Assembly: GCA_964022435.1 (NCBI GenBank)
Contig: CAXIAL010000009.1
Location: 5,659-69,658, forward strand
Source: an uncultured Roseobacteraceae bacterium
GTDB taxonomy: Bacteria > Pseudomonadota > Alphaproteobacteria > Rhodobacterales > Rhodobacteraceae
Direction of reading: 5' to 3'
Length of the DNA: 64,000 nucleotides
Part shown: one piece after another, positions 22,380-42,054 of the stretch
How the letters are laid out: each line of letters begins with the position of its first letter
How positions within the stretch are numbered: position 1 is the first letter of the stretch
Translations under genes and position numbers: made by a program
Notes under the pieces: generated by a model
Databases searched by the model: none
What the model saw: only the letters and a program-made list of their open reading frames with translations
What the model was told of the DNA's origin: nothing

Positions 22380-24025
22380 AGATTTGCCACCGGCAGCCAC
22401 CAATCATCCGCGTTGTCCAGTTCGCCCCACAATGGCGCGCCTTGGGCCAATGTGATGCGCGTCCAGCGGTCCGATTTGGGGTCAAACTTCGCGGCCCCAA
22501 AGAACGACAATTTGCAGCGCAGCATATCAATCGGCAGGCAATCGCGGCCAATCAGATTGTCGCGGATTTCGCTATAGGGATGCCGGTCGAGGGTCTGCAC
22601 GCGTTTCACTGCTGCGCGATGTTCGGGGTGGCGCGCAAGGAAACCAGCGACCGTGCCGGATTGTCCTGTTAGTGCGTGATGCAAGATTTTGACCTGCCGT
22701 GAAATATCCAGCGGGCTTTCAAGATGCGCTCCATCTTCGGCATGGCGGTCACCGAGGCGTGGTTCCAGCTTTTCCTCTGACACATACCAAAATTTCGCGC
22801 AATTTTCGGGCGATTCATAGTCGATATCGCAGGCCCAATCCCAATCCCGCGCGATTAAATCTGCAAGCGCGTCACAGGACATCATCGGGTCGACCTGCGG
22901 CGCAAACGGCGTGGCCATGCAGTCGGCCAGCCCGTCAATCAGGTCGCCGAACGGTTCGAGAACCATAGCCGCGATCAGCTCTTGGGTATCGATTGACCAT
23001 TTACTGCTGAGCGTCAGAAGCAAATCAATCGGATGTCGGCCGGACATTGCGGCGGGGGTCATTGCCGCGATCACCTTGGGCCATTCGGCGCGAAGCGTAT
23101 CGATCCGATCCGCTGCTATCTGATCAGGTACATTCCATTGATTCAGATGATCAGTGACCCGCGCCGCAAGATCCATCAGTCGCGCGACCTGCGCCGCACC
23201 CAATTCCGGCAATGCCCGCACCCGCGCAATCGCCGTTTCGCGGACCTGCATCCATGAATCCAACAACACTGGGTGGTTCACCAAAAACGGCGCCATCCCA
23301 AGGCCCGTGGAATTGCCGATGCCCAAATGACGTTTCATCTCGCGGCTCAGCTTTGCACCACCAACATGTTCGGCAAGATCATGGGTAAAGCCGCGGATCA
23401 GCAGCACGATCAGCATTTCGGCCATGAACGGCCCACCCATGCCGGGCCTGTCGGCGATGCGCCCGCGATCCGCGATGCCGAATTTCCCGTTGCCGTAAAC
23501 GGCGGTGGTTCGCATCAAATAGCCCGTGGATTTCACCAAATCAGCATCCGGCTGCTGCCCCTCGCGCAATGCAGTCGTGACGTGATCGAACAGGCGCACG
23601 GATTTATTTGCGCGGCTAAGCACCAGATCACGCTCGGTAAAGCGCCCTGCCTCTTGCAGCGGGGCCGATGCAACGATGCGGTCAATTTCGGACTGTGACG
23701 GGATGCCATCATATAAAACATAGGCCGTGTCCCACGCCGTCGCGATCACGCGGTCGGTGCGCATTTCGGGCGGCAAATCCGTGGACACCGCGACCAAGGC
23801 GTAATCGAACCCGCCAAAGCGAAGCTGATAAACCGCATGACCGAACCCATTGGCACACATTTGCCAAACGGTGCGATCAACGCGCACATTTTCCGCAGTT
23901 AAAGCCCGTAGAAGAGTCCGCATAAACGACAAACGATGCGGGAATGACGCCCCCATACGCCGCAAGCGCATCACATCTTGTGGTGCGCGCAACGGCATTT
24001 GCGCGGGGGCAATTGCGTCCTTCAT
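22376..24025 (-). CDS. Uncharacterised 549-aa protein
   Basis: Long open frame with conserved-looking blocks (RTTAVYGNGKFG, GIGNSTGLGMAPFL, KLSFFGAAKFDPKSDRW); no family I can name. Confidence 0.75.
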   Translation of the reverse strand: MKDAIAPAQMPLRAPQDVMRLRRMGASFPHRLSFMRTLLRALTAENVRVDRTVWQMCANGFGHAVYQLRFGGFDYALVAVSTDLPPEMRTDRVIATAWDTAYVLYDGIPSQSEIDRIVASAPLQEAGRFTERDLVLSRANKSVRLFDHVTTALREGQQPDADLVKSTGYLMRTTAVYGNGKFGIADRGRIADRPGMGGPFMAEMLIVLLIRGFTHDLAEHVGGAKLSREMKRHLGIGNSTGLGMAPFLVNHPVLLDSWMQVRETAIARVRALPELGAAQVARLMDLAARVTDHLNQWNVPDQIAADRIDTLRAEWPKVIAAMTPAAMSGRHPIDLLLTLSSKWSIDTQELIAAMVLEPFGDLIDGLADCMATPFAPQVDPMMSCDALADLIARDWDWACDIDYESPENCAKFWYVSEEKLEPRLGDRHAEDGAHLESPLDISRQVKILHHALTGQSGTVAGFLARHPEHRAAVKRVQTLDRHPYSEIRDNLIGRDCLPIDMLRCKLSFFGAAKFDPKSDRWTRITLAQGAPLWGELDNADDWWLPVANL

Positions 24026-24242: not shown

Positions 24243-26036
24243 ATGCTTAACCTCAAACGGATCATCACAGCCATGGTCCTTTGGCCCGCTGCGGTTGTTG
24301 CGCAAGACATCTCGTTTGACGTTAAAGGGGAAAGCAGCGATTTGGCTGCGGCATTGCGATCGGCGTCGTTGGTGTTAGCGACCTCAGCAGATAAAAACCC
24401 TGATCCACAAGACTATATCGCGGCTGCGCGGGCGGATTACAGGCGGCTTTTGACCGCGCTTTACGGGCGCGGTTATTACAGCGGTGTCATTTCGATTTCC
24501 GTCGACGGGCGCGAAGCGTCCAGTATCGCACCACTTGCAGCCCCTGCTCGGATCAACGCCATCACGCTACGCGTTGATCCAGGTCCTGTATTTCGATTTG
24601 GCGACACCGACATCAGCCCAACCGCATCTGGCACCCTGCTGCCCGAAAGTTTTGCGCGCGGTCAAACTGCTGCGGCGAATGTTGTCGGGCAAGCCGTCAC
24701 TGCCGCCGTTGATGCATGGCGCGACACGGGTCACGCCAAAGCCGCCCGTATCGGTCAAAGCATCACAGCGCAGCACGCTGCGCAAGAATTGAACGTACGT
24801 GTCGCCATCGCGCCCGGCCCGCAACTGACATTCGGTGACGTGAGCGTGACCGGCAATGCCGCCGTGCGCACCGATCGGATCGTTGCGATTGCTGGTCTGC
24901 CTGTTGGAGAAACATTTTCGCCTGCGGCACTGAAAAAGGCAGAGCAACGCCTGCGCGAAACAGGTGCCTTCGACAGTGTCACCACGACCGAGGCAAAGGT
25001 GATCGGACCTAACGACACCTTACCAATCGTTTTGAATGTCGCCGAAAGGAAACCGCGGCGCTTTGGCTTTGGGCTGGAACTGTCATCCATCGAAGGGATC
25101 AAAGTTTCGTCGTTCTGGCTGCACCGAAACTTCCTCGGCGGGGCGGAACGGTTTCGCGTGGATGGTGAAATTTCTGGGATCGGTGGCGAAACCGGCGGCG
25201 TCGACTATACGATTGGCCTAAATTTAGAACGCCCGGCTGTTTATGGCCCCGATACCGATGGTTTCATTCGGTCCCAGTTAAGCCGCGAAGACGAGCCCGA
25301 CTACCGCGTCGATCAATTCGCGATTGAGGCAGGTCTGACACGCGTGATCGCCGATGATCTGGTGGCTGAAATTGGTGTTGGCTTTCTGACCGCCCGCGAC
25401 GTCACTGACCTTGGCACACGCGATTACACGTTGGTCACCTTTCCAATTTCAGCGACTTTGGACCGGCGTGATGTTCCAACGAATGCAACGGATGGCTATT
25501 ATCTCGATCTCGAAACGACCCCGTTTTTCGACACTGCCAATGACGTTGTTGGGGCGCGGATGTTTGCAGATGCACGTGCCTATCGTAGCGTAGGGGCGGA
25601 CGAACAACTAACGCTCGCAGGCCGATTGCAAGTCGGCAGCCTGCTGGGGACAAGCATTCAAAATGCCCCCGCCGATTTCCTGTTCTATTCTGGCGGTGGC
25701 GGCACCGTGCGGGGCCAACCTTATAAATCGCTGGCTATTGACGATCTCGTGGGTGGGCAAGCCGTGCGAACAGGCGGCCAATCTTTCGTTGGCGCCCAAT
25801 TCGAAGCACGTTATGCAGTAAACGACACAATCGGGCTTGTCGGGTTTTACGATGTGGGTCAGGTCAGCGCCGACGCGGGCTTTGACAACAACACGGGCTG
25901 GCATGCGGGCGCGGGTGTTGGCATCCGGTATAACACCGGCATCGGCCCAATTCGGTTAGACATCAGCACCCCTGCCAGCGGCGCAAACATCGCGAAATCC
26001 GTTCAGGTATACATCGGGATCGGGCAATCGTTTTGA
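24243..26036 (+). CDS. tamA: Translocation and assembly module TamA (Omp85 family)
   Basis: Signal peptide, POTRA-like region, GGGGTVRGQPY loop, GIRYNTGIGPIRLD, C-terminal YIGIGQSF. Confidence 0.9.
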   Translation: MLNLKRIITAMVLWPAAVVAQDISFDVKGESSDLAAALRSASLVLATSADKNPDPQDYIAAARADYRRLLTALYGRGYYSGVISISVDGREASSIAPLAAPARINAITLRVDPGPVFRFGDTDISPTASGTLLPESFARGQTAAANVVGQAVTAAVDAWRDTGHAKAARIGQSITAQHAAQELNVRVAIAPGPQLTFGDVSVTGNAAVRTDRIVAIAGLPVGETFSPAALKKAEQRLRETGAFDSVTTTEAKVIGPNDTLPIVLNVAERKPRRFGFGLELSSIEGIKVSSFWLHRNFLGGAERFRVDGEISGIGGETGGVDYTIGLNLERPAVYGPDTDGFIRSQLSREDEPDYRVDQFAIEAGLTRVIADDLVAEIGVGFLTARDVTDLGTRDYTLVTFPISATLDRRDVPTNATDGYYLDLETTPFFDTANDVVGARMFADARAYRSVGADEQLTLAGRLQVGSLLGTSIQNAPADFLFYSGGGGTVRGQPYKSLAIDDLVGGQAVRTGGQSFVGAQFEARYAVNDTIGLVGFYDVGQVSADAGFDNNTGWHAGAGVGIRYNTGIGPIRLDISTPASGANIAKSVQVYIGIGQSF

Positions 26037-29000
26037 AACAGCTTATTCTCGCCAGCACGCTTGCCTGCGCGCCATTGATGGCATCGGGACAAACCCAAGA
26101 AGACATCGACAAAGGGTTTCTGGTCGACTTGATCGAAAGCAATCTATCGAGCAGCACGCGCGACGTGAGCATCACTGGCTTCAAAGGCGCGCTTAGCTCG
26201 GCAGCATCCTTGGATGTGATGACAATTGCCGATGCGGATGGCGTTTGGCTGACATTGGAAGATGTGGTTCTCGATTGGAACCGAAGCGCTGTGCTGCGCG
26301 GGCAGATCGACGTTGAAGAACTCAGCGCCGCGCGCATCATTATCACCCGTCCCCCCGCCTCGGAACCGTCAGCCCCCAGCCCAGAAGCCGTTGGGTTTTC
26401 ATTGCCCAGCCTGCCGGTTGGCATTGCATTGGGGAAATTGGCGATTGCAGAAATAGTCTTGGGCGAGGCGTTTTTGGGCGAGGAAATTTCGCTGAGCTTG
26501 ACCGGAAATGCGGCCCTGTCGGGCGGCGAAGGCAATGCAATGGTGACCGCCAAGCGTCTAGGGAACAAGGCTGGCATTTTCTCTATCGACGGTAGTTATA
26601 GCAACGAAAGCCGCATTCTGGCGCTGGACCTCTCGGTCGCAGAAGACGCGGACGGCATCGCCGCGTCGATTTTGAATTTACCAGACCGCCCATCAGCCGA
26701 ATTGTCCGTTTCTGGCACCGCACCGATTGACAACTACACAGCCGAACTGACGCTGGCGACCAACGGACAGGACCGGATCACTGGCGATTTCAGCTATGAG
26801 ACCGATGATCTAGGACACCTGATCAATCTCGATATTGGCGGTGATATTTCGCCCCTGTTTGATCCTGCATATCAGGCCTTCTTTGGCGACGATGTTAGTC
26901 TTGTTGTATCGCTACGCAACGGCAACAGCGGCCGTGTCGACTTGCAAAACTTGACGCTGACATCCGACAGCTTGAACCTATCGGGCACCGCGCAGATCGG
27001 TGCGCAAGGATGGCCAGAACGGGTCGACCTGCGCGGGCAAATCGCGAATGATGACGGTGATCCCGTTTTACTGCCGCTGGCAGGGCCGAAAACCTTTCTC
27101 GACACCGCGCAATTTGATCTGCAATTCGACCAAAAGGTTTCACCGGACTGGACGATTGATCTGGACGTAACTGACTTTGAGCGCCCCGGCGTATTCATTG
27201 ACGAAATCAACCTGATTGGCACCGGTATTCTCGTTGGCGGGCAGGATGATGTGAATGGAGAAGCCACCGCCAATCTGACATATACGGTGGCAGGGTTACA
27301 GTTGGATGATGTGGGTGCAGCGCAAGCATTGGGCGACACGATCAATGGCGTTTTGACAGCAAAGCGCACAGAAGGAAGCCCGACACAGATCACCGCATTC
27401 ACACTGTCCGGCCCAGGTCTAGAGGCACGTGCGACAGCCACCATCGCCGGCCCTGAAACCGGACTAAGAACGCAAAGCACTGTCGCCCTGACCGTCGATA
27501 CGCTTGAGCGGTTTTCAACACTGGCCGGTCGCCCGTTGGCGGGGTCTAGTGCTGTGTTGATCTCCAGCACGGTTGCCCCGCTTGACGGCACTTTTGACAT
27601 CGATGTGACGGGCACGACCCATGATCTTTTGGTCGGCATCCCGCAACTTGACGCCGTTCTATCGGGGCGCGGCACAATCGCGGCCACAGCGGAACGAGAC
27701 ACCGACGGCACGCGACTAACCGACCTACGTATCCAGACATCTGCGGCCAAGCTGACCGGTTCAGCCGATTTAGCAAGCACTGGCAGCGATGCCACGATCG
27801 ACATCTCGGTCCAAGACATCGCGCGGATTGAACCTCGATTGACTGGCGCATTGACAGCAACCATTGATGCGGCCCGCGACGTATCCGATCAAACCAAAGT
27901 CACGTTGCGCGTCGATGGTCTTGGCACGGATATCGACGTGCTGGCAGACATCAGCCCGACCCAAGAAATTTCGGGCACGGTAGATGCCGTCGTAGACAAT
28001 CTCGCAACATTTCAACGGCTGATCGGCCAGTCAGTATCAGGTGGTCTATCCGCGCAGATAGCGGGCACGGCTATGTCAGATTTTTCGGCCTTTGTTGGTA
28101 CCGCCGACATGCAAACCAGCAATTTAGGCGTGGGCAACGCCATTGCCGATTTGCTGCTAGCAGGCAACGGACGCCTAAGCGCATCCGCGAATTTGGCAAA
28201 TGGAACCCTGCAAATTGACAGGCTAACAGCAGAGACACCGCAAATGTCGATTACGGGCAATCTCGGGGGCAGTAACGGCACGGGAACAGGGGCATTCAAC
28301 GCCCGCCTGCGCGATGTTGGCATACTGACAGATCAATTGAGCGGACCAGTCACGGCCTCTGGTACCGCGGCACGCCCAAGCTTTGGCAACTGGCAAATCG
28401 ACGCGACCGCCAATGGCCCGGGCGGTATTAATCTGCGCGCAGACGGACAAGTCGCGCAATCTGGAAATTTGAACATCGATGTGCGAGGCACTGCACCGCT
28501 AGGTTTAGCAAACCGCGTCTTGGAACCGCGCCGCATCACCGGCGATGCGGTGTTTGATTTGGCGTTAAACGGATCGCCAACCGTGGATGCATTATCGGGG
28601 CGGATCGACCTGCGAAACGCACGCGTGACTGCGCCCACATTGGCGCAGGGTTTGTCGAATATTGTGGGCGGCATCGGCTTTGCAAATGGCACTGCGCGAT
28701 TGGGTATCACCGGAGATGTGCAATCCGGCGGGTCCGTTTCCGTGACTGGTCCTGTGGGCCTGAATGCCCCGCAAACGGCGGACATTGCAGTCGCCCTAAG
28801 CAATGTCATCCTGAAAGATCCGACGCTTTACAGCACCAGCATTGGCGGCACCCTGACGGTCAAAGGGCCACTTTCTGGTGGCGCAGAAATCGCCGGTCAG
28901 CTTAGCCTTGGGCAAACCGAATTGCAGGTGCCTTCTTCTGGTGTTGGGGCATTAGGCGATTTGCCGGATGTCACCCACATCGGTGCATCAAACGCAGTGC

Positions 29001-29764
29001 GCACGACCTTGGCCCGCGCAGGTGTCACCAACGAAACCAACGTTGAAACCGCTGGCAGTATTCGCCCTTTCCCGCTGGATATCGCAATCAATGCCCCTTC
29101 GCGGATCTTCATTCGTGGGCGCGGTTTGGACGCTGAATTGGGTGGCACATTGCGGATCGGCGGCACCACCGCTGATGTGCAGCCCATTGGATTGTTTGAA
29201 CTTGTGCGCGGGCGCATCGACATTTTGCAGCAACGGTTCGAACTCGCCGAGGGCAGTGCGTCGCTTCAAGGCGACTTTGAGCCCTACATCCGGCTGGTCG
29301 CTCGGACCGAGGCCCGCACGGGCACTGCAATTTCGATCATCGTTGAGGGCCCTGCAAGCGAGCCGGTGGTCAGTTTTATTTCGACGCCCTCCCTGCCCCA
29401 AGACGACGTCTTAGCGCAGCTGATTTTCGGGCGTGATCTGCAAAATATCAGCCCACTGCAAGCCGTGCAGCTTGCGGCGGCTGTAGGCACTTTGGCAGGG
29501 CGCGGCGGCGGCGGATTGATCGATACTTTCCGCCAAAATATCGGGCTGGATGATTTTGACGTAACCACAGACGAGGACGGAAATGCCGCCGTTCGCGCGG
29601 GCAAATACCTATCGGAAAACGTCTATACGGATGTGATTGTGTCCAGCGATGGAACCACCGAAGTGAACATTAATCTCGACATCACCGATGATTTTACCGC
29701 CAAAGGGTCCGTAGACGGAGACGGTGAAACAAGCATCGGGATATTCTTTGAAAAAGACTACTGA
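26033..29764 (+). CDS. tamB: Translocation and assembly module TamB
   Basis: 1243 aa beta-rich protein; C-terminal RGRGLDAELGG and GKYLSENVY...FFEKDY; TTGA overlap with tamA. Confidence 0.88.
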   Translation: MKQLILASTLACAPLMASGQTQEDIDKGFLVDLIESNLSSSTRDVSITGFKGALSSAASLDVMTIADADGVWLTLEDVVLDWNRSAVLRGQIDVEELSAARIIITRPPASEPSAPSPEAVGFSLPSLPVGIALGKLAIAEIVLGEAFLGEEISLSLTGNAALSGGEGNAMVTAKRLGNKAGIFSIDGSYSNESRILALDLSVAEDADGIAASILNLPDRPSAELSVSGTAPIDNYTAELTLATNGQDRITGDFSYETDDLGHLINLDIGGDISPLFDPAYQAFFGDDVSLVVSLRNGNSGRVDLQNLTLTSDSLNLSGTAQIGAQGWPERVDLRGQIANDDGDPVLLPLAGPKTFLDTAQFDLQFDQKVSPDWTIDLDVTDFERPGVFIDEINLIGTGILVGGQDDVNGEATANLTYTVAGLQLDDVGAAQALGDTINGVLTAKRTEGSPTQITAFTLSGPGLEARATATIAGPETGLRTQSTVALTVDTLERFSTLAGRPLAGSSAVLISSTVAPLDGTFDIDVTGTTHDLLVGIPQLDAVLSGRGTIAATAERDTDGTRLTDLRIQTSAAKLTGSADLASTGSDATIDISVQDIARIEPRLTGALTATIDAARDVSDQTKVTLRVDGLGTDIDVLADISPTQEISGTVDAVVDNLATFQRLIGQSVSGGLSAQIAGTAMSDFSAFVGTADMQTSNLGVGNAIADLLLAGNGRLSASANLANGTLQIDRLTAETPQMSITGNLGGSNGTGTGAFNARLRDVGILTDQLSGPVTASGTAARPSFGNWQIDATANGPGGINLRADGQVAQSGNLNIDVRGTAPLGLANRVLEPRRITGDAVFDLALNGSPTVDALSGRIDLRNARVTAPTLAQGLSNIVGGIGFANGTARLGITGDVQSGGSVSVTGPVGLNAPQTADIAVALSNVILKDPTLYSTSIGGTLTVKGPLSGGAEIAGQLSLGQTELQVPSSGVGALGDLPDVTHIGASNAVRTTLARAGVTNETNVETAGSIRPFPLDIAINAPSRIFIRGRGLDAELGGTLRIGGTTADVQPIGLFELVRGRIDILQQRFELAEGSASLQGDFEPYIRLVARTEARTGTAISIIVEGPASEPVVSFISTPSLPQDDVLAQLIFGRDLQNISPLQAVQLAAAVGTLAGRGGGGLIDTFRQNIGLDDFDVTTDEDGNAAVRAGKYLSENVYTDVIVSSDGTTEVNINLDITDDFTAKGSVDGDGETSIGIFFEKDY

Positions 29765-30549
29765 TCCGCGAGGAATTGCAGGATTGGCGTCGTGAACGCG
29801 CTAGAGGTTTCCATCAGGCCAAGGTGCTGCAACGCGGGCACGATGATAGTCTGGGCGCCCGCGATTTCAGACGCGATATCATGGCTCATATCGGGCGTGC
29901 TGCCGCTGTCGTTTTCGCAGGTCATCACCAACGTCGGCGTGGTGATTTCACCCTCGCGTCCCGTCAATTCCACGACCCCGTTCGCCAGCACCCACGCCGC
30001 TTGGGCGTAGCTGTCGTCATCGACCATTTCGCGCCAATTGCGAACCAACGCTGGGCCGTCGCCAGCCCCTAAATAAGCGGGTGTGAACCAGCGCTTTAGC
30101 GCCGCATCAAAAGTTGCAAAAGCACCTTGATCACGGGCGGCCAGCGCGCGAGCCTCGACCTGTGCTTGTGCATCAGTCCCGCGATCATGTGGGGAGTTCA
30201 GGATCGTCAGCGATGCAACGCGCTCGGGGTAGTCCAACGCGAAACGTCGATTGATCATCCCCCCGATAGAGAATCCTACAACATGAACCTTGGCGACCCC
30301 GAGGTGATCCGACAGCCCTGCGAGTTGACCAGCATAAACTGACAGACTGGCCGTCGCCGCCGACTTTTCCGACGCCCCATGCCCATACAGATCATAGGTC
30401 AATACGCGATAGCCCGCAAAGGCAGGCAGCATCCCCGCAAAAACATCGCGGCACAGGCCCAGCCCGTGGATGAAAACCACGACGGGTGCATCCACAGGGC
30501 CGGTTAGCGTGTAAGACGTGCCGTTAAACGCCGGCGGGGTTGTCGACAT
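29758..30549 (-). CDS. Alpha/beta hydrolase (TgnD-like position in the operon)
   Basis: HGLG oxyanion motif, GFSIG nucleophile elbow, C-terminal His (ALQHLG). Confidence 0.85.
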   Translation of the reverse strand: MSTTPPAFNGTSYTLTGPVDAPVVVFIHGLGLCRDVFAGMLPAFAGYRVLTYDLYGHGASEKSAATASLSVYAGQLAGLSDHLGVAKVHVVGFSIGGMINRRFALDYPERVASLTILNSPHDRGTDAQAQVEARALAARDQGAFATFDAALKRWFTPAYLGAGDGPALVRNWREMVDDDSYAQAAWVLANGVVELTGREGEITTPTLVMTCENDSGSTPDMSHDIASEIAGAQTIIVPALQHLGLMETSSAFTTPILQFLADQ

Positions 30550-31120
30550 CGTGGCCCATTTCCTCAAGATCTTCGTAACGGTTGCCAATGCGGTGGTTCG
30601 GATGCCCGCCGATGGATGCGCCAAGTGCAACGATCAGCTCGTCATCCGCTGGCGCATCGGGCACACAGGTGTGGATCGTCTGGTAATGGCTGCGCGCGCC
30701 GCCGTCATCTTTGTGCATCAACGGAATGATCACAGGGGTGCCTGCCGACCCGCGCGTGTTCGCAAATACAAGGTAAGATTTTGCCTCCACCGCATCCCGA
30801 TATTGGTTCCCAAACCACAGCGTGTGGGTCAGCCCTTGGGCGTGTTCCAGCTCTCCGCCCATGCCGACAACGGATGATTTACCGTAGCCTTCCACGGTGC
30901 CGCCCGTTTCCTTGAGGATCATGTCGGTCAGCAATTTGCCCAATACCGGCCCATGATCGCGGATCGCAGGGCGCAGGTTTTCGACGTATCCCATGCCCGC
31001 CCAAGGGTTCTTAATAATCGCCATGGCCGCGACCAAAAGGGTTGGCGTGTCCACGGTCTTGCCGCCTTCGACAAAAGTGGTTTGCACGGTCGTCAGGGTG
31101 CGGCGAATTTCAACAGTCAT
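30524..31120 (-). CDS. 'Amino acid synthesis' family protein (DUF1185; TgnF-like)
   Basis: IIKNPWAG, GYGKS.VVG..GELEHA, IPLMHKDD...RSHY, DAP.DDEL.VALG. Confidence 0.8.
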   Translation of the reverse strand: MTVEIRRTLTTVQTTFVEGGKTVDTPTLLVAAMAIIKNPWAGMGYVENLRPAIRDHGPVLGKLLTDMILKETGGTVEGYGKSSVVGMGGELEHAQGLTHTLWFGNQYRDAVEAKSYLVFANTRGSAGTPVIIPLMHKDDGGARSHYQTIHTCVPDAPADDELIVALGASIGGHPNHRIGNRYEDLEEMGHDVDNPAGV

Positions 31121-31132
31121 TGTGGTTTTCCT

Positions 31133-32164
31133 TTAGGCAAATGCAGGCATGACGCGGTCGATAAACAGCTGGAGCGACCGCTTTTGCAGGTCCATATCCA
31201 GCCCCATCGAGGCGTAGTAGATAAAGGCGTCGACGCCAAGGTCTTCGTATCCGCGCAGCTTTCCGATGACCGTATCAGGGTCGCCGAACATCAGGTTTTC
31301 TTCGAGCATATCAAGGTCGACGCGCACGTTGCCCTCTAGCTCTTCCAAGGGCACGATTTCAGGGAAGCCGTTGATGACATCGCCCTTCTTCATCATAACA
31401 TTGCCGAACCGGCCCAATGTGCCGCGAATGGTGGTCAGCGCCTCTTGGCGGTCATCCTCGTTTTCATAAAGTGCGGTGTGCCGCATCAGTGCGAATGTGC
31501 CGTCCCAACCGCCCGCTTTGGCGATGCTTTCATCCAGCTGGCCCTTGTATTTCTCGGCCTCTGCCATGGGCAAGGTGAACGGCCAACACATGACGTTGCA
31601 GTCATTTGCAACGGCATAATCGAACGTCGCAGGTGACCGCGCGGCGACCCACATCGGCACGGTGTCTTGCACAGGTTTCGGGCAGGATGTGGCCGCAGGG
31701 AACCGCCAGTGGTCGCCGTTATGTTCCACGTCGCCCTTCCACAATTCGCGGACCAAGGGCAGCATTTCTTGCATGTATTTATGCCCGTCCTTTTGATCGA
31801 GCCCGGGACGCATCCGGTCAAATTCACGCTGATAGGCACCGGACCCGAGGCCCAAATTCAACCGCCCATCCGACAGCAAATCGACCATCGCCGCCTCGCC
31901 CGCCAGATTGATCGGATGCCAATAGGACGCGTTCGCGACACCACAGCCAAGCTGGATGTTCGTCGTATGATTGGCCCACCAAGTCATGATCTGAAACGGG
32001 TTGGGCGCGATGGTCATTTCAAGCGCGTGATGTTCAGCAGCCCAAGCGATCTCAAAACCCGCGTCATCGGCCATTTTGACCATCTCCAACACGTGGTCGC
32101 GCACGGCGATCATGTCGGTCGTTTCGTCCATACGCTCGAGGTTAATTGCGATGTGGAATTTCAT
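31133..32164 (-). CDS. LLM-class (luciferase-like) flavin-dependent monooxygenase, TgnB-like
   Basis: W.AEHH, TIAPNPF, WHPINLAGEAAM.D..S.GRL, LWKGD.EHNG, WVAARSP. Confidence 0.88.
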   Translation of the reverse strand: MKFHIAINLERMDETTDMIAVRDHVLEMVKMADDAGFEIAWAAEHHALEMTIAPNPFQIMTWWANHTTNIQLGCGVANASYWHPINLAGEAAMVDLLSDGRLNLGLGSGAYQREFDRMRPGLDQKDGHKYMQEMLPLVRELWKGDVEHNGDHWRFPAATSCPKPVQDTVPMWVAARSPATFDYAVANDCNVMCWPFTLPMAEAEKYKGQLDESIAKAGGWDGTFALMRHTALYENEDDRQEALTTIRGTLGRFGNVMMKKGDVINGFPEIVPLEELEGNVRVDLDMLEENLMFGDPDTVIGKLRGYEDLGVDAFIYYASMGLDMDLQKRSLQLFIDRVMPAFA

Positions 32165-32177
32165 GGCTCTCTCCTGA

Positions 32178-33650
32178 TCAGCGCATTTTGAATGGGTTGG
32201 CGACGGGGTCGTCGGACATGTTCATCCAGACGGTTTTGGGGCGGGTATAAGCGTACAAAGCTTGGAACCCGCTTTCTCGCCCATAGCCGCTGTTTTTCAC
32301 GCCACCAAAGGCAGCAATCGGGCTGATCGCGCGGTAGGTATTCACCCACACGATGCCCGCCTTGACCCGTTTGGACATGCGGAGGGATCGCGCGCTGTCG
32401 CGGGTGAAAATGCCCGCCGCCAGCCCGTGTTGGCTATCATTTGCCAGTGCCAGCGCCTCGTCTTCGGTGCGGAACCGCTGCATGGCGAGCACGGGGCCGA
32501 ACAGTTCGGTATCCACGATGCTCATGTCTTGGCGCGGGCAGTCGATGATCGTCGGCTCATAGTAAAGCCCGCCTAGATCAGGTTGCTTGCCGCCACACAG
32601 AATGGTGCCACCTTCAGACTGGGCCAAGGCGACTTGGGTCTGGATATGATCGAGTTGTGCTTGCGTGCAAAGCGGGCCCATCTCAGTCGCTTCATCTTGC
32701 GGATCACCAATACGGATGTTCCCCGCGATGGCGACCATACGGGTCAGAAATTCATCCGCGATGTCTTCGTGCAGATACAGCCGTGAACCCGCGACACAGG
32801 ATTGCCCAGTCGCCCCGAAAATCCCAGCGATTGACCCATTCACGGCGCTTTCGATATTTGCGTCATCGAAGACGATGAACGGGGATTTCCCACCAAGTTC
32901 GAGCGAAACTTCTGCGAAGTTTTCCGCCGCGTTGCGCATGATATGGCGCGCCGCGTTGGGACCACCGGTAAAGGCAACCTTGGCCACGAGCGGATGCGAC
33001 GTCAGGTGTTTGCCGCAATCCGCGTGACCCGTCACGATGTTAACGACACCGTCGGGAATGCCCGCCTGCGCGACCAGTTTCCCTAATTCTAGGAGCGGTG
33101 CCGCCGCATGTTCGGACCCTTTCATCACGATGGTGTTGCCCGCCGCCAAAGCAGGGCCGATCTTGACTGCGCTCAGGAACATTTGGCTGTTCCACGGAAC
33201 GACAGCGGCGATCACGCCAAGCGGTTCGCGGTCGGTGAAAACGAACATATCGGGCTTGTCGATGGGCAGGGTTTCACCGTGCAGTTTGTCGGCGGATCCA
33301 GCGTAAAAATGCAAGAACTCGGCGATGTATTTCGATTGCCACGCGGTTTCGGAATACATCTTGCCGGTGTCGGTTGTTTCAATCCGTCCGATGGCTTCAG
33401 AATTGGCAGCAAGCAGGTCAGCCAAACGGCCAAGCGCGCGGCCCCGTTCGGTCGCGGTCATCTGCCCCCATGGGCCGTCAAGGGCGGCATCGGCGGCACG
33501 CACGGCGGCGTCGACATCGGCGGCGGTAGCTTCGGGAATGGTTGCCCAAACTACTCCGGTTGCAGGGTTCACGCTGTCGAACCGCGCGCCATTCGTGGCA
33601 TCGATCCACGCGCCGTTGATGAGCATTTGATAGTTTACGGTGTCTGACAT
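32178..33650 (-). CDS. Aldehyde dehydrogenase family protein, TgnC-like
   Basis: VPWNSQ, FTGG, LELGGKSP, GQSCVAGSRL (catalytic Cys), ELFGPV; C-terminal MSDDPVANPFKMR. Confidence 0.92.
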   Translation of the reverse strand: MSDTVNYQMLINGAWIDATNGARFDSVNPATGVVWATIPEATAADVDAAVRAADAALDGPWGQMTATERGRALGRLADLLAANSEAIGRIETTDTGKMYSETAWQSKYIAEFLHFYAGSADKLHGETLPIDKPDMFVFTDREPLGVIAAVVPWNSQMFLSAVKIGPALAAGNTIVMKGSEHAAAPLLELGKLVAQAGIPDGVVNIVTGHADCGKHLTSHPLVAKVAFTGGPNAARHIMRNAAENFAEVSLELGGKSPFIVFDDANIESAVNGSIAGIFGATGQSCVAGSRLYLHEDIADEFLTRMVAIAGNIRIGDPQDEATEMGPLCTQAQLDHIQTQVALAQSEGGTILCGGKQPDLGGLYYEPTIIDCPRQDMSIVDTELFGPVLAMQRFRTEDEALALANDSQHGLAAGIFTRDSARSLRMSKRVKAGIVWVNTYRAISPIAAFGGVKNSGYGRESGFQALYAYTRPKTVWMNMSDDPVANPFKMR

Positions 33651-33726
33651 CTGCCGCCTCCTTTGATCGTGACAGAGGTTAGCGCGGAAAATTGATTTGA
33701 AAAAACGAATGTTTTTGCATAATAAG

Positions 33727-33741
33727 TTCGAAAAAGGCGAA
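33727..33741. promoter_or_regulatory. LysR-type recognition site
   Basis: Inverted repeat TTCG-AAAAAGG-CGAA containing T-N11-A, between the divergent ALDH and lysR starts. Confidence 0.55.
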
Positions 33742-33746
33742 CCGTT

Positions 33747-34580
33747 ATGAACTTGTCTGAACTGCGTACATTCCTGACGATCATCGAAACCGGCAGTCTT
33801 GTGCGGGCGTCAGAGGCGTTGAATGTGACCCAATCGACGGTCACCGCACGGCTGAAGGCGTTAGAGGATGAACTGGGTCAGCGGCTCATGCACAGGCAAA
33901 AATCAGGCATCGTTCTGACGGCAGCAGGTAATCGGCTGCAACGATATGCGTCTACAATCAGTGACTTATGGCAACAGGCCCGCCACGAAACCGCCCTGCC
34001 CGATGGGATGCAGTCGATTTGCAACCTTGCCTGTCACCCCGATCTTTGGCCCGATCTGGGTGAAAAACTATTCGCGCATATTCGCGACACACAGCCCAAT
34101 GTCGCGCTGTCGATCTGGACGGGCGGGCAATACGATTTGGCAAGCTGGCTTGATCAGGGGTTGGTGGACGTGGCGCTGACATATTGGCCAAGCACGCGGG
34201 CGACGGTGCTGACAGAGCCGTTGATCCAAGACCGGTTAATCCAAGTGTCCACCGATCCGACGCGATTCGACGCGACGCAGGGCGGATATGTGTTCGTCGA
34301 AGCAGGCGACAATTTCAGTCGTGCCCATGCAAGCGCATTCCCGCAAACGGATGCGGCAAGGTTGAGCTTTGGGGCAGCGACTTTGGGCCGTGACTACATC
34401 CTGCGCAACGGCGGCGCGGCCTATTTGCCCGCGCGGATTGCCCACCCGAACATTGGATCAGAATTGCAGGAAATTGCGGGCGCACCGCAGTTTACGCGCC
34501 AAATCTATGCCGTATCGCGCACAACAGCTTGCGCTGGTTGGCCGTGGTTGGGCAGCGCATTAGATACGCTTCGTTCGTAG
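33747..34580 (+). CDS. LysR family transcriptional regulator
   Basis: N-terminal HTH (LRTFLTIIETGSLVRASEALNVTQSTVTARLKALE); divergent from the ALDH operon. Confidence 0.93.
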   Translation: MNLSELRTFLTIIETGSLVRASEALNVTQSTVTARLKALEDELGQRLMHRQKSGIVLTAAGNRLQRYASTISDLWQQARHETALPDGMQSICNLACHPDLWPDLGEKLFAHIRDTQPNVALSIWTGGQYDLASWLDQGLVDVALTYWPSTRATVLTEPLIQDRLIQVSTDPTRFDATQGGYVFVEAGDNFSRAHASAFPQTDAARLSFGAATLGRDYILRNGGAAYLPARIAHPNIGSELQEIAGAPQFTRQIYAVSRTTACAGWPWLGSALDTLRS

Positions 34581-34616: not shown

Positions 34617-36572
34617 TTAGGCTTTGTTCATCCGGTTTTCGATGAGATCGTCAACCACGGATGGATCGGCCAATGTGGACGTGTCGCCCAATGCACCAAA
34701 ATCGTCCTCGGCAATCTTGCGCAGGATACGGCGCATGATTTTTCCCGAACGTGTTTTCGGCAGGCCTGGTGCCCATTGAATTAGGTCAGGTTTGGCAATC
34801 GGGCCGATTTCGGCGCGGACCCAAGTTTCCAATTCTTTGCGCAATCCCTCTGATGGTTCTTCGCCGCCCATCAAGGTGACATAGGCGTAAATGCCTTGGC
34901 CCTTGATGTCGTGCGGGTAGCCAACGACTGCGGATTCCGCGACCTTCGGGTGGGCGACCAAGGCGCTTTCGACCTCTGCCGTGCCCATGCGGTGGCCAGA
35001 TACGTTGATAACATCATCGACCCGGCCCGTAATCCAGTAATACCCGTCCGCATCACGGCGACAGCCGTCACCGGTGAAGTAGTAGCCTTTGTAGTCGCTG
35101 AAATAGGTCTTCTCGAACCGCTCGTGATCGCCCCAAACACTGCGCATTTGGCCCGGCCAGCTGTCTTTGATACACAGCACGCCTTCGGCTGCGGTATCGT
35201 GAATTTCTTCGCCCGTTGTCGGCTCCAAAATCACAGGCTGAATGCCGAAGAACGGCAAGGTGCAAGACCCCGGTTTTGTCGCTGTTGCACCGGGCAGCGG
35301 AGTCATCAAATGACCGCCAGTTTCGGTCTGCCACCATGTATCAACAATCGGGCATTTGCCCTTGCCGACAACGTCGTTGTACCAGTTCCATGCCTCTGGG
35401 TTGATCGGCTCGCCGACGGTGCCCAAGAGCTTCAGATCGGACAGATCGTGCTTTTCGACAAAGCTATTCCCTTGCCCCATCAGTGCGCGAATTGCGGTGG
35501 GGGCGGTGTAGAATTGGTTGACCTTATGCTTGGCGCAAACCTCCCAGAAACGACCAGCGTCGGGGAAAGTTGGCACGCCTTCAAACATCACGGTCGTCGC
35601 GCCATTTGCCAGCGGGCCGTAGACGATATAGCTGTGGCCTGTGACCCAACCCACGTCAGCCGTACACCAGAAAATGTCGCCGTCATGATAATCAAACGTG
35701 TATTGATGGGTCATGGACGCGTAAACGAGATAGCCGCCTGTTGAGTGGACAACGCCCTTTGGCATGCCCGTCGAACCAGATGTGTAAAGAATAAACAGCG
35801 GATCTTCGGCGTTCATTTCCGTAGGCGGGCAATCGGCAGACACATTCGCCTGCATCTCGTGCAGCCAGAAATCGCGACCCTCGACCATGGCGACATCACC
35901 GCCTGTGCGCTGAACAACTAGCATCTTGGACGGCGCATCGATCTTTTCAAACGCGGCATCTGCGTTAACCTTTAACGGGGTGTTGCGGCCGCCGCGTGGG
36001 GCTTCGTCTGCCGTAATCACAACCTTGGCTTCGGATCCATTGACCCGAGCAGCCAGTGCATCAGAAGAAAAACCAGCAAAGACAATTGAATGGATCGCGC
36101 CAATCCGCGCAGAGGCAAGCATCGCATAGGCGGCTTCGGGGATCATTGGCATATAGATAACAACGCGGTCACCTTTGCCCACACCCATGTCTTTAAGAAC
36201 ATTTGCAAACTTGCTGACGTTTGCGTGCAGCTGATTGTATGTGATGTGCAGCGCTTCGTCAGTGGGGCTGTCGGGCTCCCAAATGATCGCCGTCTGATCG
36301 CCACGCGTGGCAAGATGACGGTCAATACAGTTGGCGGCGACGTTCAGCGTGCCGTCCTCGAACCACTTAATATCCACTTGGCCAAGCGTGTAGTCCGACG
36401 ACTTAACTTTGGTATAGGGTGTCATCCAATCGACGCGCTTGCCATGCTCGGCCCAAAATGCCGTAGGGTCGGCGATAGACGCAGCATACATGGCCTCGTA
36501 TTTCGCCTTGTCAGCATGTGCGCCCGCAGCCATTTCAGCCGACGGTGGATAGGTTACATTTGCGTCAGACAT
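34617..36572 (-). CDS. acs: Acetyl-CoA synthetase
   Basis: [44 protein letters not shown]. Confidence 0.96.
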
Positions 36573-36756
36573 CGTCTGTCCCCCCAGATTAATTCAATTA
36601 GGGCATAAAATGCCCTGTCCTCTCGTTGATGCGCACGACGCGCACCGTTTCCCTGACGCACACCATGAAACTAATCGCTCCAACTTCCAAGCGGCCCTTC
36701 ACCGCTCAGTAGTTGTTTTTGTGAATTTATTTACATTCAATTTGACAACTCAAGCA

Positions 36757-36800
36757 TTAATCAAAATTAACGCCCCATTAACGCTTGTTTACCATCTTAA
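36757..36800 (+). promoter_or_regulatory. Cluster of CtrA-like sites
   Basis: TTAA-N6-TTAA-N7-TTAAC-N6-TTAC-N4-TTAA; perfect TTAA-CGCCCCA-TTAAC at 36767-36782. Confidence 0.6.
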
Positions 36801-36819
36801 CCGCGGGGGGAGGGCATCA

Positions 36820-37488
36820 ATGGCACGCGGCGTATTTCACTTCATCATCATTTTTTTCTACGCGACGATGGCACACTCTGGCGCATGGCCGCGCGACGAA
36901 GGCCGGTATTTCATCGCAGCTGGCGGCAATTTTTTGTTGTCCGACGGTGCACAACTGCCCGTCCACTACGACCCGACGATTTATCTTGAATACGGACTTT
37001 CCGACGAAATCACCCTAGGGGTTGATATGCATCTGGCCGATGCCGGACGTATCGGAACCGCGTTTTTCTTCATCAGCACCCCACTTAGCGCAAAACACTC
37101 CCAGCAAAAAGTGTCGGCAAACCTCGCCTTCGGCATCCGGTCAAATGGCTTAAGCGAAACCGAAACCCTGATGCGTGCCGGTCTGTCTTGGGGGATGGGG
37201 TTTGACAATGGATGGCTCGCCGTTGACGGCTATGCCACATTGTCGAATGCAGACGATAAGCTCCGACCCAAACTGGATCTCACAGGGGGGTATCGCTGGT
37301 CTGACACCGTAGAGCTGTCCGTGCAGCTGCAAACGGGTCAAGGCACAACTGACGATTTTTATGCCAAACTAGTGCCATCAATTTCCTACCAGCTCAACGA
37401 AACAATTGGGCTGCACCTTGGCGCAGCCCAAGCCCTAACGGGCGATCGTGGGGCGGGCCTGAAATTCGAAACCCGACTAACGTTTTAG
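36820..37488 (+). CDS. Hypothetical exported protein, probable outer-membrane beta-barrel
   Basis: 222 aa from ATG 36820 (GGGAGG RBS); signal peptide (..MAHSG-A), amphipathic strands, C-terminal Phe. Confidence 0.65.
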   Translation: MARGVFHFIIIFFYATMAHSGAWPRDEGRYFIAAGGNFLLSDGAQLPVHYDPTIYLEYGLSDEITLGVDMHLADAGRIGTAFFFISTPLSAKHSQQKVSANLAFGIRSNGLSETETLMRAGLSWGMGFDNGWLAVDGYATLSNADDKLRPKLDLTGGYRWSDTVELSVQLQTGQGTTDDFYAKLVPSISYQLNETIGLHLGAAQALTGDRGAGLKFETRLTF

Positions 37489-37512
37489 AACCGTTTCGCA
37501 ATCACAAAAGCA

Positions 37513-39801
37513 CTACAACGGATTGTCCATGCGGACCGTAAACCGAACCTCGCCTTTAACTGGCGTGCCCCAACCCAATTCAACATTCCGAAAATCGGCT
37601 CCCTGACTCGCATCAACAGACGGGGCCAAATAGACTGGCGTATTAGACCCATTGCGCAAAGTTCCCCGCGCGGTAACCGCATCAACAAATCGCGCGCGTC
37701 CTTCAAACGGCAGATAGGGTTCGGTGTCCAACGTCCAAGTGGAAGCAGCCGTTGATTGGACATGTGACAATGTTGCAGGGTTGAATACTTCGTTACGGAT
37801 CCCGTGAAACGCATTGCCTGAAAACTCCACCGTTCGCATACGAATGAATTCCAAATCGGCAAATGTTGTGTCCACCTTCTCCACACCGTCAATGTATCCA
37901 TTAACGGTCCAGAATGTATTTCCCACTACCGAAAAACCGTGGATAAAATGGCCCGGGCCGAACGGCTTGATGACGATGACCTTGAATGAATCTGCGACAT
38001 TTGAAGCAAAGAACATGTTACTCGTTATCGTCATTCCACCAAACGAGAACTGGTTGCCGAGCGCTGGTTCGGCAGAGTGTTCATTTGTCCACTCTACAAA
38101 GTTGTTTTCGATGTAATTGTGATTGATCACCGTCGATGGATTTGGCGTCGTAATCACCACGCCACCCATGCGCACACCATCTTGTTGCAGGTCGCCTTGG
38201 AACCAATGATTACCCGTCAGCGTCGTCGTCGAGCCACCAAGAATTGCGAAATGTTTGAACATCATGATGCGATTGTCGCGAATTTTGACGTCGTTGGCAT
38301 TGGTGTTCAATGCAATAGAAACACGTTGCTGCACATTCAACGCGGTCTCATTGGAATTAAACTGACAACGGTCCACCATCATGCCCTGGCAACCCGTGCC
38401 AATTGACGTCAAACCTCGGTCTTTGGGCTTGGTGAAAAAACAATCTCGGACATGAAACGTCAGCCCGTCGGGGGCCAGCATAACACCACTGGCAATGCCA
38501 TTACCTTGGAATTCAATGTCATCCATGACGAATTGGCTCAGACTACTGAACCCAGAAAAGTCCAATAGATATTTGAACCGCTTGAACGTATAGCTTTGCG
38601 TCCCAACTGCGTCATAAAGTGGCTGACTGATGTAAACGATCTTGGCACCGACATTTACGCTCGTGACATAAATTTCACGCCCAACGCCTGTTCCCTCAAC
38701 CAAAGACCCAACCTGAACATTCGCCACATTGGTTACATTCGTCAAACGGGTTGGATTGGCGACGGCATAAGTGCCATTGGATGCCACGCTTTCCGTATCC
38801 CAACCTGTTGCGCCAACAGCTTGAAACTGTCCATTTCGGATAACACGGCGCGTCGCAAAAACTGTGCGATTTGGATCAGCAGCCTGCATATCCATCGGCT
38901 CTGTCAGATCAATACGACGCCCACACAAATCAAGAGATTCATGATCCGAAAAATTCAACAGCGCCTGAAACGCTTTGCGAAATGCCAACTGTTCGTCGCC
39001 AAATGCACTAAGATAAAGTTCATAGTTGAACTCTTGCTGCAAAATGAACCGTTTATCTGCTGGTTGCGTTACGGTGCCTTCGAATTTTACACGGCTTTCA
39101 ATCGTAACATCTTTGTCGATCTGAAACACACCGCTTGATACTAAAACCGTGCGCCCGTGCGCTGCCGCATCAGCTGCCTCGAATGCGGCACTATCGTCTG
39201 TGGTGCCATCACCTTTTGCCCCATAATCGCGCACATCGACAACAGACAAAATATCACGCGTGAAAAAGCTGGTGACGTCTTCGATCACCAAATCATCGAC
39301 ACGTACCAAGCCCCCGCTTGCGCCCGTCAGGTCAATACCGAAATGGCCGTATGACGCGGAATCCCAAACCATGTCGACACCAGTCCGGTCGGCAATGGCA
39401 ATGATCGCGGAGATTTCGACCACTTCGCCATAAGTGGTCAATTGCGTCGCTGGGCCAACGGTGGTCAAACCATTGGCTTGACCTCCTCCTGCACGACCTG
39501 CCCAGCCCGAAATGCGCACCGATGGCATTGGGCCAGCGACAGCCTTGACCGACGCACGCACCTGCAAAAAACATCCCGGCAAAATGGGTGTTTCACCCAT
39601 ATATCGCACACGGTTCGTTGTCGCATCTTTGACGACTTCAAGACAGCCACCAAAATCCTGATCCGCCGCGACAAACACGCCATTACCACTAACCGCATAA
39701 GTGTCAGAACCAGGCGTCCCATCGCCGCTTGACCAAACCCCAAGACCTGCCGCAAACGGCAGCGGCATCAGCACAAGCCCATCGGTAATCGCTTTATTCA
39801 T
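37513..39801 (-). CDS. Right-handed beta-helix protein (pectate lyase 3 / GH28-like / tailspike-like)
   Basis: 762 aa; VDVRDYGAKGDGTTDDSAAF motif followed by Asn/Gly-rich beta-helix coils; no signal peptide. Confidence 0.75.
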   Translation of the reverse strand: MNKAITDGLVLMPLPFAAGLGVWSSGDGTPGSDTYAVSGNGVFVAADQDFGGCLEVVKDATTNRVRYMGETPILPGCFLQVRASVKAVAGPMPSVRISGWAGRAGGGQANGLTTVGPATQLTTYGEVVEISAIIAIADRTGVDMVWDSASYGHFGIDLTGASGGLVRVDDLVIEDVTSFFTRDILSVVDVRDYGAKGDGTTDDSAAFEAADAAAHGRTVLVSSGVFQIDKDVTIESRVKFEGTVTQPADKRFILQQEFNYELYLSAFGDEQLAFRKAFQALLNFSDHESLDLCGRRIDLTEPMDMQAADPNRTVFATRRVIRNGQFQAVGATGWDTESVASNGTYAVANPTRLTNVTNVANVQVGSLVEGTGVGREIYVTSVNVGAKIVYISQPLYDAVGTQSYTFKRFKYLLDFSGFSSLSQFVMDDIEFQGNGIASGVMLAPDGLTFHVRDCFFTKPKDRGLTSIGTGCQGMMVDRCQFNSNETALNVQQRVSIALNTNANDVKIRDNRIMMFKHFAILGGSTTTLTGNHWFQGDLQQDGVRMGGVVITTPNPSTVINHNYIENNFVEWTNEHSAEPALGNQFSFGGMTITSNMFFASNVADSFKVIVIKPFGPGHFIHGFSVVGNTFWTVNGYIDGVEKVDTTFADLEFIRMRTVEFSGNAFHGIRNEVFNPATLSHVQSTAASTWTLDTEPYLPFEGRARFVDAVTARGTLRNGSNTPVYLAPSVDASQGADFRNVELGWGTPVKGEVRFTVRMDNPL

Positions 39802-39912
39802 GAATAACCCTTTCCGGAAAATCTCTGCAAAGGCACCGGATCAAGGCCAGCGCGCCAGTAAAAATTTAGCTTCCAAGGGTGAACTAGGGCCTAGACCACC
39901 GTGACGGTGGGA

Positions 39913-40305
39913 TTAAGCACCAACAGCAGGCGGCAACAACTGAACACCATCAATCTGCCATGTATCGCCTTCGCGGATCATTTTATAATCGATGATATGC
40001 ACGGCTCCGTTCGGGTCACGCATCATCACACGTTGGAAGAAAAACGGACCTTCTTCGCGTGGTTCTAAAAATCGCACATCGCTATTGTCCCAAACCATGG
40101 GATAACCGCGCGCAACCATTGTGCCGAAATTCAACGGATTTCCAAACAGCCGCTTGATCATCGGACTTGCGTACCCAAACGCCTTGGGCACATCGCGATC
40201 GTTAAATGCCTGTAACTGTGCGCCAATGACGTCTTGCATCGTATCGGCCAAAGCCCCCGATGCACTCAGCCCCAACACCAAAACGCCTGCAATCAAATGT
40301 CTCAT
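39913..40305 (-). CDS. DUF4864-like exported protein
   Basis: Signal peptide; VIGAQLQAF..D...AFGYASP.I...FG....F..MV..GYP motif. Confidence 0.75.
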   Translation of the reverse strand: MRHLIAGVLVLGLSASGALADTMQDVIGAQLQAFNDRDVPKAFGYASPMIKRLFGNPLNFGTMVARGYPMVWDNSDVRFLEPREEGPFFFQRVMMRDPNGAVHIIDYKMIREGDTWQIDGVQLLPPAVGA

Positions 40306-40362
40306 TCATGCCTCCGATCATCCTAAAGCTAGTTTAGTAACGATCAAAGGCACGAATTAGTT

Positions 40363-41940: not shown

Positions 41941-42054
41941 AGTATCTCTCACGGGTTGAACGGGGGTCCCAATGACGCCCCAACGCGCACTCCCTATTGC
42001 GCAAGCGCATTGGCGTCAATAAATCGGTAGGGTAACAAGTCAAAAGGAACGGAC

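Follow-up and report, generated by a model that had tools for sequence, protein, structure and literature searches.

A LysR-linked, tgn-like operon of a marine roseobacter and the non-canonical type I lineage to which it belongs

Described pathways and the locus in the window

The closest described relative of the locus considered here is the trigonelline (tgn) pathway, whose gene cluster was reportedly characterised in Acinetobacter baylyi ADP1 by Perchat and colleagues (PNAS, 2018) and is said to have the gene order F-D-A-B-C-P-E, like the cluster on the pSymA replicon of Sinorhizobium meliloti. Our locus is an operon with a divergent LysR gene at positions 29758-34580 of a 64,000-nucleotide stretch (hereafter the window) of contig CAXIAL010000009.1, from an uncultured Roseobacteraceae bacterium. 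It encodes the same enzyme families as canonical tgn, namely a luciferase-like monooxygenase (LLM) as oxygenase, an aldehyde dehydrogenase (ALDH), an alpha/beta hydrolase and a DUF1185 protein. As shown below, however, it belongs to a distinct, widespread and non-canonical lineage, termed here type I, that is found in marine Rhodobacteraceae, SAR116 and Gammaproteobacteria. A more distant comparison is offered by the pyridine degradation system pyrABCDE of Arthrobacter sp. 68b, reportedly described by Casaite and co-workers in 2020, in which a two-component LLM-type monooxygenase is likewise said to open an unactivated pyridine ring, with a dehydrogenase, an amidohydrolase and a succinate semialdehyde dehydrogenase (SSADH) acting thereafter. 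By description, that system is set apart from ours: it reportedly resides on an actinobacterial plasmid, acts on a substrate lacking both methyl and carboxyl groups, and employs other accessory enzymes with no DUF1185 protein.

The third system for comparison is the homarine operon homABCDER, defined by transcriptomics and knockouts in Cobetia and Ruegeria pomeroyi (Ferrer-Gonzalez et al. 2026, PMC13236597). Here an FAD-binding HomA pairs with HomB, HomC is peptidase-like, HomD is ALDH-like, with a profile that its authors consider non-specific, and the product is N-methylglutamate (PMC13236597). Its substrate is an N-methylpyridinium carboxylate and its carriers are marine Rhodobacterales, SAR116 and Gammaproteobacteria. 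In this, as in its ALDH-like enzyme and dedicated regulator, it would resemble the type I operon; in contrast, no LLM, DUF1185 protein or alpha/beta hydrolase is described for it, which sets the two apart. In the opinion of one earlier study TgnAB is unlikely to accept homarine, and the same study reports that the roseobacter R. pomeroyi grows on trigonelline (PMC8269262).

As a yardstick for the known pathway we used the S. meliloti pSymA cluster, taken as a proxy for that of A. baylyi ADP1. Growth on trigonelline requires pSymA (PMC4207669) and the trigonelline catabolic genes are said to lie on it (bioRxiv 10.1101/296483). The replicon carries a single LLM of the family, in a cluster that encodes, in the order F-D-A-B-C-P-E, a DUF1185 protein, a hydrolase, a flavin reductase, the LLM, an ALDH, the substrate-binding protein (SBP) and ABC transporter, and a second ALDH, and that directly adjoins nifB and nifA.

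The features of the window operon are as follows, with domains from Pfam:

33747-34580, + strand: LysR-type transcriptional regulator (HTH_1 and LysR_substrate), divergent from the operon
33651-33746: divergent control region, 96 nt between lysR and the ALDH gene
32178-33650, - strand: TgnC-like ALDH (PF00171, 537 bits)
31133-32164, - strand: FMN-dependent LLM of the marine type I clade of the TgnB family (PF00296, 179 bits)
30524-31120, - strand: TgnF-like DUF1185/AA_synth protein (PF06684, 194 bits)
29758-30552, - strand: alpha/beta-fold hydrolase (Abhydrolase_1/6) in the position of TgnD but of a different clade; the start is taken as the ATG at 30552, the longest open reading frame (ORF) beginning with a TTG at 30630

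The ORFs and their domains thus bear out the arrangement that the original prediction had read from the letters, a LysR gene divergent from tightly packed ALDH, LLM, DUF1185 and alpha/beta hydrolase genes: the gaps are 13 nt between the ALDH and LLM genes and 12 nt between the LLM and DUF1185 genes, and the DUF1185 and hydrolase genes overlap by 29 nt. The catalytic signatures are retained, with an ELGGKS motif and the catalytic Cys motif in the ALDH, a GFSIG nucleophile motif in the hydrolase translation, and in the LLM an E44-H45-H46 triad, from the conserved His pair region of the PF00296 TIM-barrel, that is invariant in all the clades aligned. No NCBIfam equivalog was found for any of the four enzymes or the LysR protein, every match falling far under its curated cutoff; the best matches of the hydrolase are PcaD-type enol-lactonases, likewise under their cutoffs. 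A search of the PDB with the LLM returned no TgnB-like structure, the nearest chains being LuxA-type and other generic LLMs, and the PDB relatives of the DUF1185 protein, 2qtp and 3byq, are both entries of unknown function. We also considered a generic alkanesulfonate or F420 LLM and rejected it, given NCBIfam matches far under the cutoffs and operon partners that are Tgn-specific.

Divergence from the canonical genes and the marine lineage

Comparison with the S. meliloti proteins splits the operon into two halves. The ALDH is 56% identical to TgnC as against 33-40% to TgnE/SSADH and the other ALDHs of its own genome, and it has in common with TgnC the segments PIDK.DM and FTGGP..ARHI.RN.AEN, which are absent from those other ALDHs. 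Hence, by sequence it is specifically TgnC-like rather than a generic ALDH or an SSADH; two further segments that had been proposed as TgnC-specific, ETTDTGK and a C-terminal motif, turned out to be confined to the window protein. The DUF1185 protein, at 62% identity to TgnF, is equally TgnF-like in sequence. The LLM has only 36% identity with TgnB of S. meliloti and 35-38% with TgnB of canonical Rhodobacteraceae clusters, but 66-85% with the LLMs of type I loci; the hydrolase, for its part, has 31% identity with TgnD of S. meliloti as against 46-76% with its type I counterparts. Canonical clusters of Rhodobacteraceae, identified in the FD(A)BC order in 15 genomes, are much closer to S. meliloti (B 63-71%, C 55-76%, F 68-77%, D 40-54%), and therefore the LLM and hydrolase of the window have diverged disproportionately. 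Thus, the expectation that the proteins would be closer to Tgn than to generic family members holds for the ALDH and DUF1185 protein, whereas the LLM and hydrolase group apart, in a deep clade of their own. The LLM nevertheless shares with canonical TgnB the motifs TI[AS]PNPF and W[HND]PI.LAGE, as anticipated, along with the EHH region. Its divergence, too, had been foreseen but misplaced in part: the N-terminal sixth is ordinary at 38% identity, and identity is lowest (18%) at residues ~230-285, a segment that we take to align with the active-site lid loop of LuxA.

In sum, all four enzymes of the TgnC/TgnB/TgnF/TgnD set are encoded in one cluster, in keeping with the proposal of a tgn-like operon with a divergent monooxygenase, but the oxygenase clade, the hydrolase clade and the gene order are not those of tgn, and no TgnA reductase is linked. 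Where the canonical order is F-D-A-B-C, that of the window is C-B-F-D with a divergent LysR gene; in S. meliloti the divergent upstream ORF has no Pfam match. The window cluster also lacks the reductase, transporter and SSADH of its canonical counterpart, and full type I loci add a thiamine diphosphate (ThDP) enzyme and a small protein to the canonical families.

Thousands of near relatives of the window LLM occur in marine metagenomes, and at 50% clustering it is a small family of 95 representatives at E<=1e-30, the member names for the clusters of distant representatives being Mesorhizobium only. A profile from a 6-sequence LLM alignment, run against genome contigs, returned only relatives of at least 59% identity and no Acinetobacter. 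Eighty genome loci have an LLM 59-85% identical to that of the window; they come from Rhodobacteraceae (Yoonia, Sulfitobacter, Roseovarius, Amylibacter, HTCC2150, IMCC1909 and Nioella), SAR116/Puniceispirillaceae, Granulosicoccaceae, Thiotrichaceae, Arenicellales and others. In phylogenetic trees the window LLM falls in a clade of 42 type I rows with 100/100 support, itself within a marine clade of 94 rows (100/99), and long, well-supported branches part it from the canonical TgnB clade, whose members are the S. meliloti protein and those of nine FDABC and two D-B-C loci. The hydrolases divide in the same way, with branches of 1.56 and 1.57 parting the type I, type II and Agrobacterium-type proteins from canonical TgnD. 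In the DUF1185 tree, type I groups with canonical Rhodobacteraceae TgnF (SH-aLRT 92) and not with type II. The D-B-C loci L092 and L093 (of Rhodobacteraceae genomes G097 and G149) are minimal clusters: their LLM has 66% identity with TgnB of S. meliloti, and genes for a DUF1185 protein or a reductase are absent from their surroundings.

Database names do not follow this division. An LLM homologue 84% identical to that of the window bears the JGI name 'flavin-dependent trigonelline monooxygenase, oxygenase component', and this same name is found both on a protein of the type I clade (P0050) and on a fragment in a Mesorhizobium cluster of the canonical clade (P0284). Automated (KO-style) naming thus appears to lump the two.

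The type I layout consists of a LysR gene divergent from an optional short flavin reductase, ALDH, LLM, DUF1185 and hydrolase genes, optionally followed by genes for the ThDP enzyme and a CMD-like or 107-aa protein. The full LysR/C-B-F-D order occurs in 21 loci including that of the window; 15 of the 21 have the ThDP gene and 12 the reductase. Among the 46 loci whose LLM is at least 66% identical, 19 have the short reductase gene, and in 34 a LysR orthologue (41-70% identical) occupies the same position. The type II layout has an LLM of the same marine clade (59-66% identical to that of the window, with the ALDH at ~72% and the hydrolase at ~44%) and also includes a DUF1185 protein. It differs in its GlxA-type regulator and carnitine-like gene set: RidA, a CoA-transferase often fused to a TgnA-like reductase, an enoyl-CoA hydratase, a carnitine-dehydrogenase-like hydroxyacyl-CoA dehydrogenase, BKACE and an ABC importer. 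Examples are found on Parasedimentitalea marina pW43B, on Aminobacter pSR3 and in Ruegeria spp. Further layouts are a Rieske-linked type and an Agrobacterium pAt type. In two type I-clade loci (L024 and L038, from Roseovarius and an unclassified metagenome-assembled genome) a Rieske-type oxygenase gene lies between the LysR and LLM genes, the usual place of the ALDH, and in L046, L048, L053 and L061 another, well-conserved Rieske gene adjoins the LLM; these loci appear to be further uncharacterised variants of the module.

Neither the additional enzyme nor the transporters of type I point to a particular substrate. By NCBIfam and the PDB the ThDP enzyme is a generic one, Xsc/ALS-like but under the cutoffs, and the transporters that adjoin type I loci are a mixture of SBP_bac_5, SBP_bac_1/8 and OpuAC types with no consistent substrate clue. 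In the Roseovarius-type loci L022, L025, L031 and L111 an OpuAC/ProW betaine-type ABC importer precedes the cluster, which is directly followed by an XRE-cupin regulator and genes whose GATase and glutamate-synthase domains are those found in N-methylglutamate synthase. Such neighbours, essentially from one lineage, fit an N-methyl betaine that would release methylamine, and the arrangement would link the type I module physically to methylamine assimilation.

The control region also displays features conserved across the lineage. As predicted, it contains a TTCG-N7-CGAA palindrome (of the T-N11-A type), at 33727-33741, which places this box 6 nt ahead of the lysR start codon. By itself it is no rarer than chance, with two occurrences in the window against 2.3 expected, but in 28 homologous LysR-operon intergenic regions it recurs exactly in 11, and with at most one mismatch in 18, its position being conserved. 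In 16 of the 28 a second half-site, TTYGWTT, lies exactly 32 nt operon-ward of it; in the window this is AAACGAA on the + strand (TTCGTTT on the - strand) at 33703-33709. Judging by their spacing and conservation, the palindrome and half-site probably correspond to the recognition-site plus activation-site layout usual for LysR-type regulators. A scan of the leader and control region against Rfam gave no family match, and sigma-70 promoter and terminator scans did no better than on shuffled sequences. A search for RNA sequencing runs that cover the locus returned none.

Within this lineage the window operon is a reduced form, as the syntenic relative L009 (acetyl-CoA synthetase 90%, TamB 73% identical) carries both the ThDP and the 107-aa gene. 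Orthologues of the type I ThDP enzyme and of the small partner proteins were not found in the genome of the window, which is 2.4 Mb in size and 92% complete; nor were N-methylglutamate-pathway genes found there, and no transporter is linked to the operon. Its LLM is the sole member of the family in the genome. The operon has no flavin reductase gene, and the only two PF01613 genes of the genome are in unrelated contexts on contigs C20 and C2, the former being the likeliest in-trans source of reduced flavin for the LLM. On C20 (L003:2441-8458, outside the window) this gene, the best flavin reductase of the genome, stands together with genes for a GntR-type regulator, a 433-aa LLM and an aldo-keto reductase, with a GFO/IDH/MocA oxidoreductase and an ALDH as neighbours; the LLM, aldo-keto reductase and flavin reductase presumably resemble a sulfoquinovose monooxygenase (smo) cluster. 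An SSADH that is 63% identical to S. meliloti TgnE is encoded on contig C1.

Distribution, candidate substrate and alternatives

The distribution of the two lineages across genomes follows an either/or pattern. Among 151 genera of the family, a marine-clade LLM is present in 17 genomes and a canonical-level match (35-43% identity) in 22, with none having both. Likewise, among 401 Rhodobacterales genomes a type I-level LLM (at least 66% identity) occurs in 21 (~5%) and a canonical-level one in ~96 (~24%), again without overlap (hypergeometric P = 0.0027 for 0/21). When S. meliloti TgnB was searched in 27 type I genomes, nothing exceeded 45% identity, so that canonical TgnB is present in 0/27. 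Cultured strains with type I but without canonical tgn include Nioella ostreopsis Z7-4, Roseovarius sp. TE539, HTCC2150, IMCC1909 and Algirhabdus cladophorae. Within the genus of the window, canonical FD(A)BC clusters are found in four species, and type I in one further species besides the window genome. For type II no such exclusion is seen: it shares a genome with canonical tgn in G183 (where both loci were read) and G492, and with type I in G043, G096, G304 and G486, and therefore serves another substrate. The either/or pattern suggests that type I does the same job as canonical tgn, trigonelline catabolism, with a non-canonical enzyme set. It is the main reason for favouring trigonelline, as functional equivalence would be expected to give such a pattern.

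Hence, we lean, with due reserve, towards the view that the window operon is a LysR-controlled, slimmed-down representative of a type I (C-B-F-D) marine lineage of the tgn-type oxidative ring-opening pathway, and hold it modestly probable that the operon serves to degrade trigonelline or a very close analogue of it. Briefly, we infer the following course of action. The inducer-bound LysR protein would act at the TTCG-N7-CGAA box and the half-site 32 nt away to turn the operon on. The LLM, with FMNH2 supplied by an unlinked flavin reductase and with O2, would then cleave the ring of its N-methylpyridinium carboxylate substrate, most probably trigonelline, and the ALDH might convert the resulting aldehyde or lactol to the acid. 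The alpha/beta hydrolase would free methylamine, formate and CO2 to leave succinate semialdehyde, which the gabD-type SSADH encoded on C1 could oxidise to succinate, aided by the TgnF-like DUF1185 protein.

Several observations weigh against this interpretation. The two enzymes that would handle the ring and the N-formyl product, namely the LLM and the hydrolase, are precisely those that are only distantly related to TgnB and TgnD, and the disproportionate divergence of the LLM, set beside the conservation of canonical TgnB, fits a change of substrate; the LLM is least conserved at residues ~230-285. The operon has no linked gene for a flavin reductase, a transporter or an SSADH. In many full type I loci there are, in addition, a ThDP enzyme and a small protein, CMD-like or unknown, for which the published pathway has no role, and the genome lacks the N-methylglutamate-pathway genes for the use of methylamine. 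Further, the canonical comparison rests on the S. meliloti proxy rather than on the A. baylyi ADP1 proteins, and the exclusivity statistic disregards phylogenetic non-independence, the 27 type I genomes representing only 17 genera.

Some of these points bear directly on the foremost alternative, which retains the logic of the pathway but assigns it to a different N-methylated heteroaromatic or betaine-type substrate (homarine attacked oxygenolytically, N-methylnicotinamide or another pyridinium), with the LLM and hydrolase setting the specificity. In its favour are the deep split of these two from the canonical enzymes, to which the ALDH and DUF1185 protein remain close, the peak of LLM divergence in the presumed lid segment, the conserved ThDP and CMD-like/107-aa genes without counterpart in published tgn, and the sister type II clusters, whose links are with carnitine-like genes and which plainly have some other role. 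However, pathways for separate substrates would be expected to co-occur at the background rate, as type II does, whereas type I and canonical tgn are never found in one genome although both are common in the same genera; homarine, moreover, already has a different and genetically proven operon devoid of these enzyme families. We accordingly regard this alternative as possible but doubtful. In its more specific form type I would be an undescribed route for another abundant marine N-methylated metabolite, for instance one that takes homarine oxygenolytically to methylamine and a 2-oxo acid, the latter being handled by the often-linked ThDP enzyme, or one for another pyridinium or betaine, and this, too, we consider a tentative prospect at best.

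It is considerably less likely that no ring is opened at all and that the LLM instead cleaves a C-N bond, as an N-dealkylating monooxygenase of aliphatic amines (quaternary or methylated), with the ALDH oxidising the freed aldehyde. The nitrilotriacetate and ethylenediaminetetraacetate monooxygenases, which are of the LLM family, are said to cleave C-N bonds; carnitine/butyrobetaine-type genes and GlxA-type regulators accompany the type II relatives; and a Rieske oxygenase adjoins the LLM in some loci. Yet all four enzyme types of the window cluster are shared with ring-opening tgn, including TgnF and a hydrolase in the N-formyl/enamide-type position, and no carnitine-type genes are linked to type I.

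The original prediction had named homarine alongside trigonelline. We found no support for homarine and hold it very improbable as the type I substrate, because the published hom operon uses other enzyme families and nothing here favours homarine over trigonelline, towards which the exclusivity with canonical tgn points. None of the five window proteins has a FAD-binding or peptidase domain by Pfam; an ALDH is present in the window operon, and HomD is described as ALDH-like. A hom-like operon was sought around the other ALDH genes of the genome by ORF order and tblastn, and only a betIBA/betC-like cluster and a fused ALDH were found. The former (C2:90928-96153) is a run of four ORFs of 189, 502, 483 and 552 aa that, by ORF order and tblastn with sulfatase and ALDH queries, resembles betI-betC-betB-betA; it would convert choline and choline sulfate to glycine betaine, and the organism may handle other quaternary amines.

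Least probable of all is that genome streamlining (to 2.4 Mb) has left behind an operon in decay, unable to support a pathway since the loss of its reductase, ThDP enzyme and small partner gene. These genes are indeed missing relative to the syntenic L009 and the same-genus L119, but none of the five genes is disrupted, their coupling is tight, their products share 67-88% identity with the nearest relatives and retain the catalytic motifs, loci L008 and L010 carry the same reduced set, and an unlinked flavin reductase is present in the genome, such enzymes commonly acting in trans.

Genomic setting and meaning for marine bacteria

The flanks of the operon are unrelated to it, with tamA/tamB on one side and an acetyl-CoA-synthetase-like gene on the other; the stop codons of the hydrolase gene and the convergent tamB overlap. 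Just upstream of the tamA/tamB pair (24243-29764) there is a minus-strand ORF of 549 aa (22376-24025) without a Pfam match. On the far side of lysR, positions 36000-42000 of the window have a G+C content of 0.50-0.53 as against ~0.57, and this stretch, which may be acquired DNA, encodes a 762-aa protein (37513-39801) that contains a domain of pectate-lyase-like fold, as well as an ORF of 292 aa with no Pfam hit (36610-37488).

Phytoplankton commonly use trigonelline and related compounds as osmolytes, the turnover of which supplies carbon and methylamine nitrogen to marine bacteria. Against this backdrop, if the type I module is functionally equivalent to canonical tgn, then two substrate-handling enzymes have been swapped for deep paralogues while the helper enzymes were kept. 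If it is not equivalent, a widespread pathway awaits its substrate, and were the alternative of another substrate true, Roseobacters, SAR116 and several groups of marine Gammaproteobacteria would harbour a pathway not yet described. Either outcome changes the reading of tgnB-like reads in metagenomes and metatranscriptomes.

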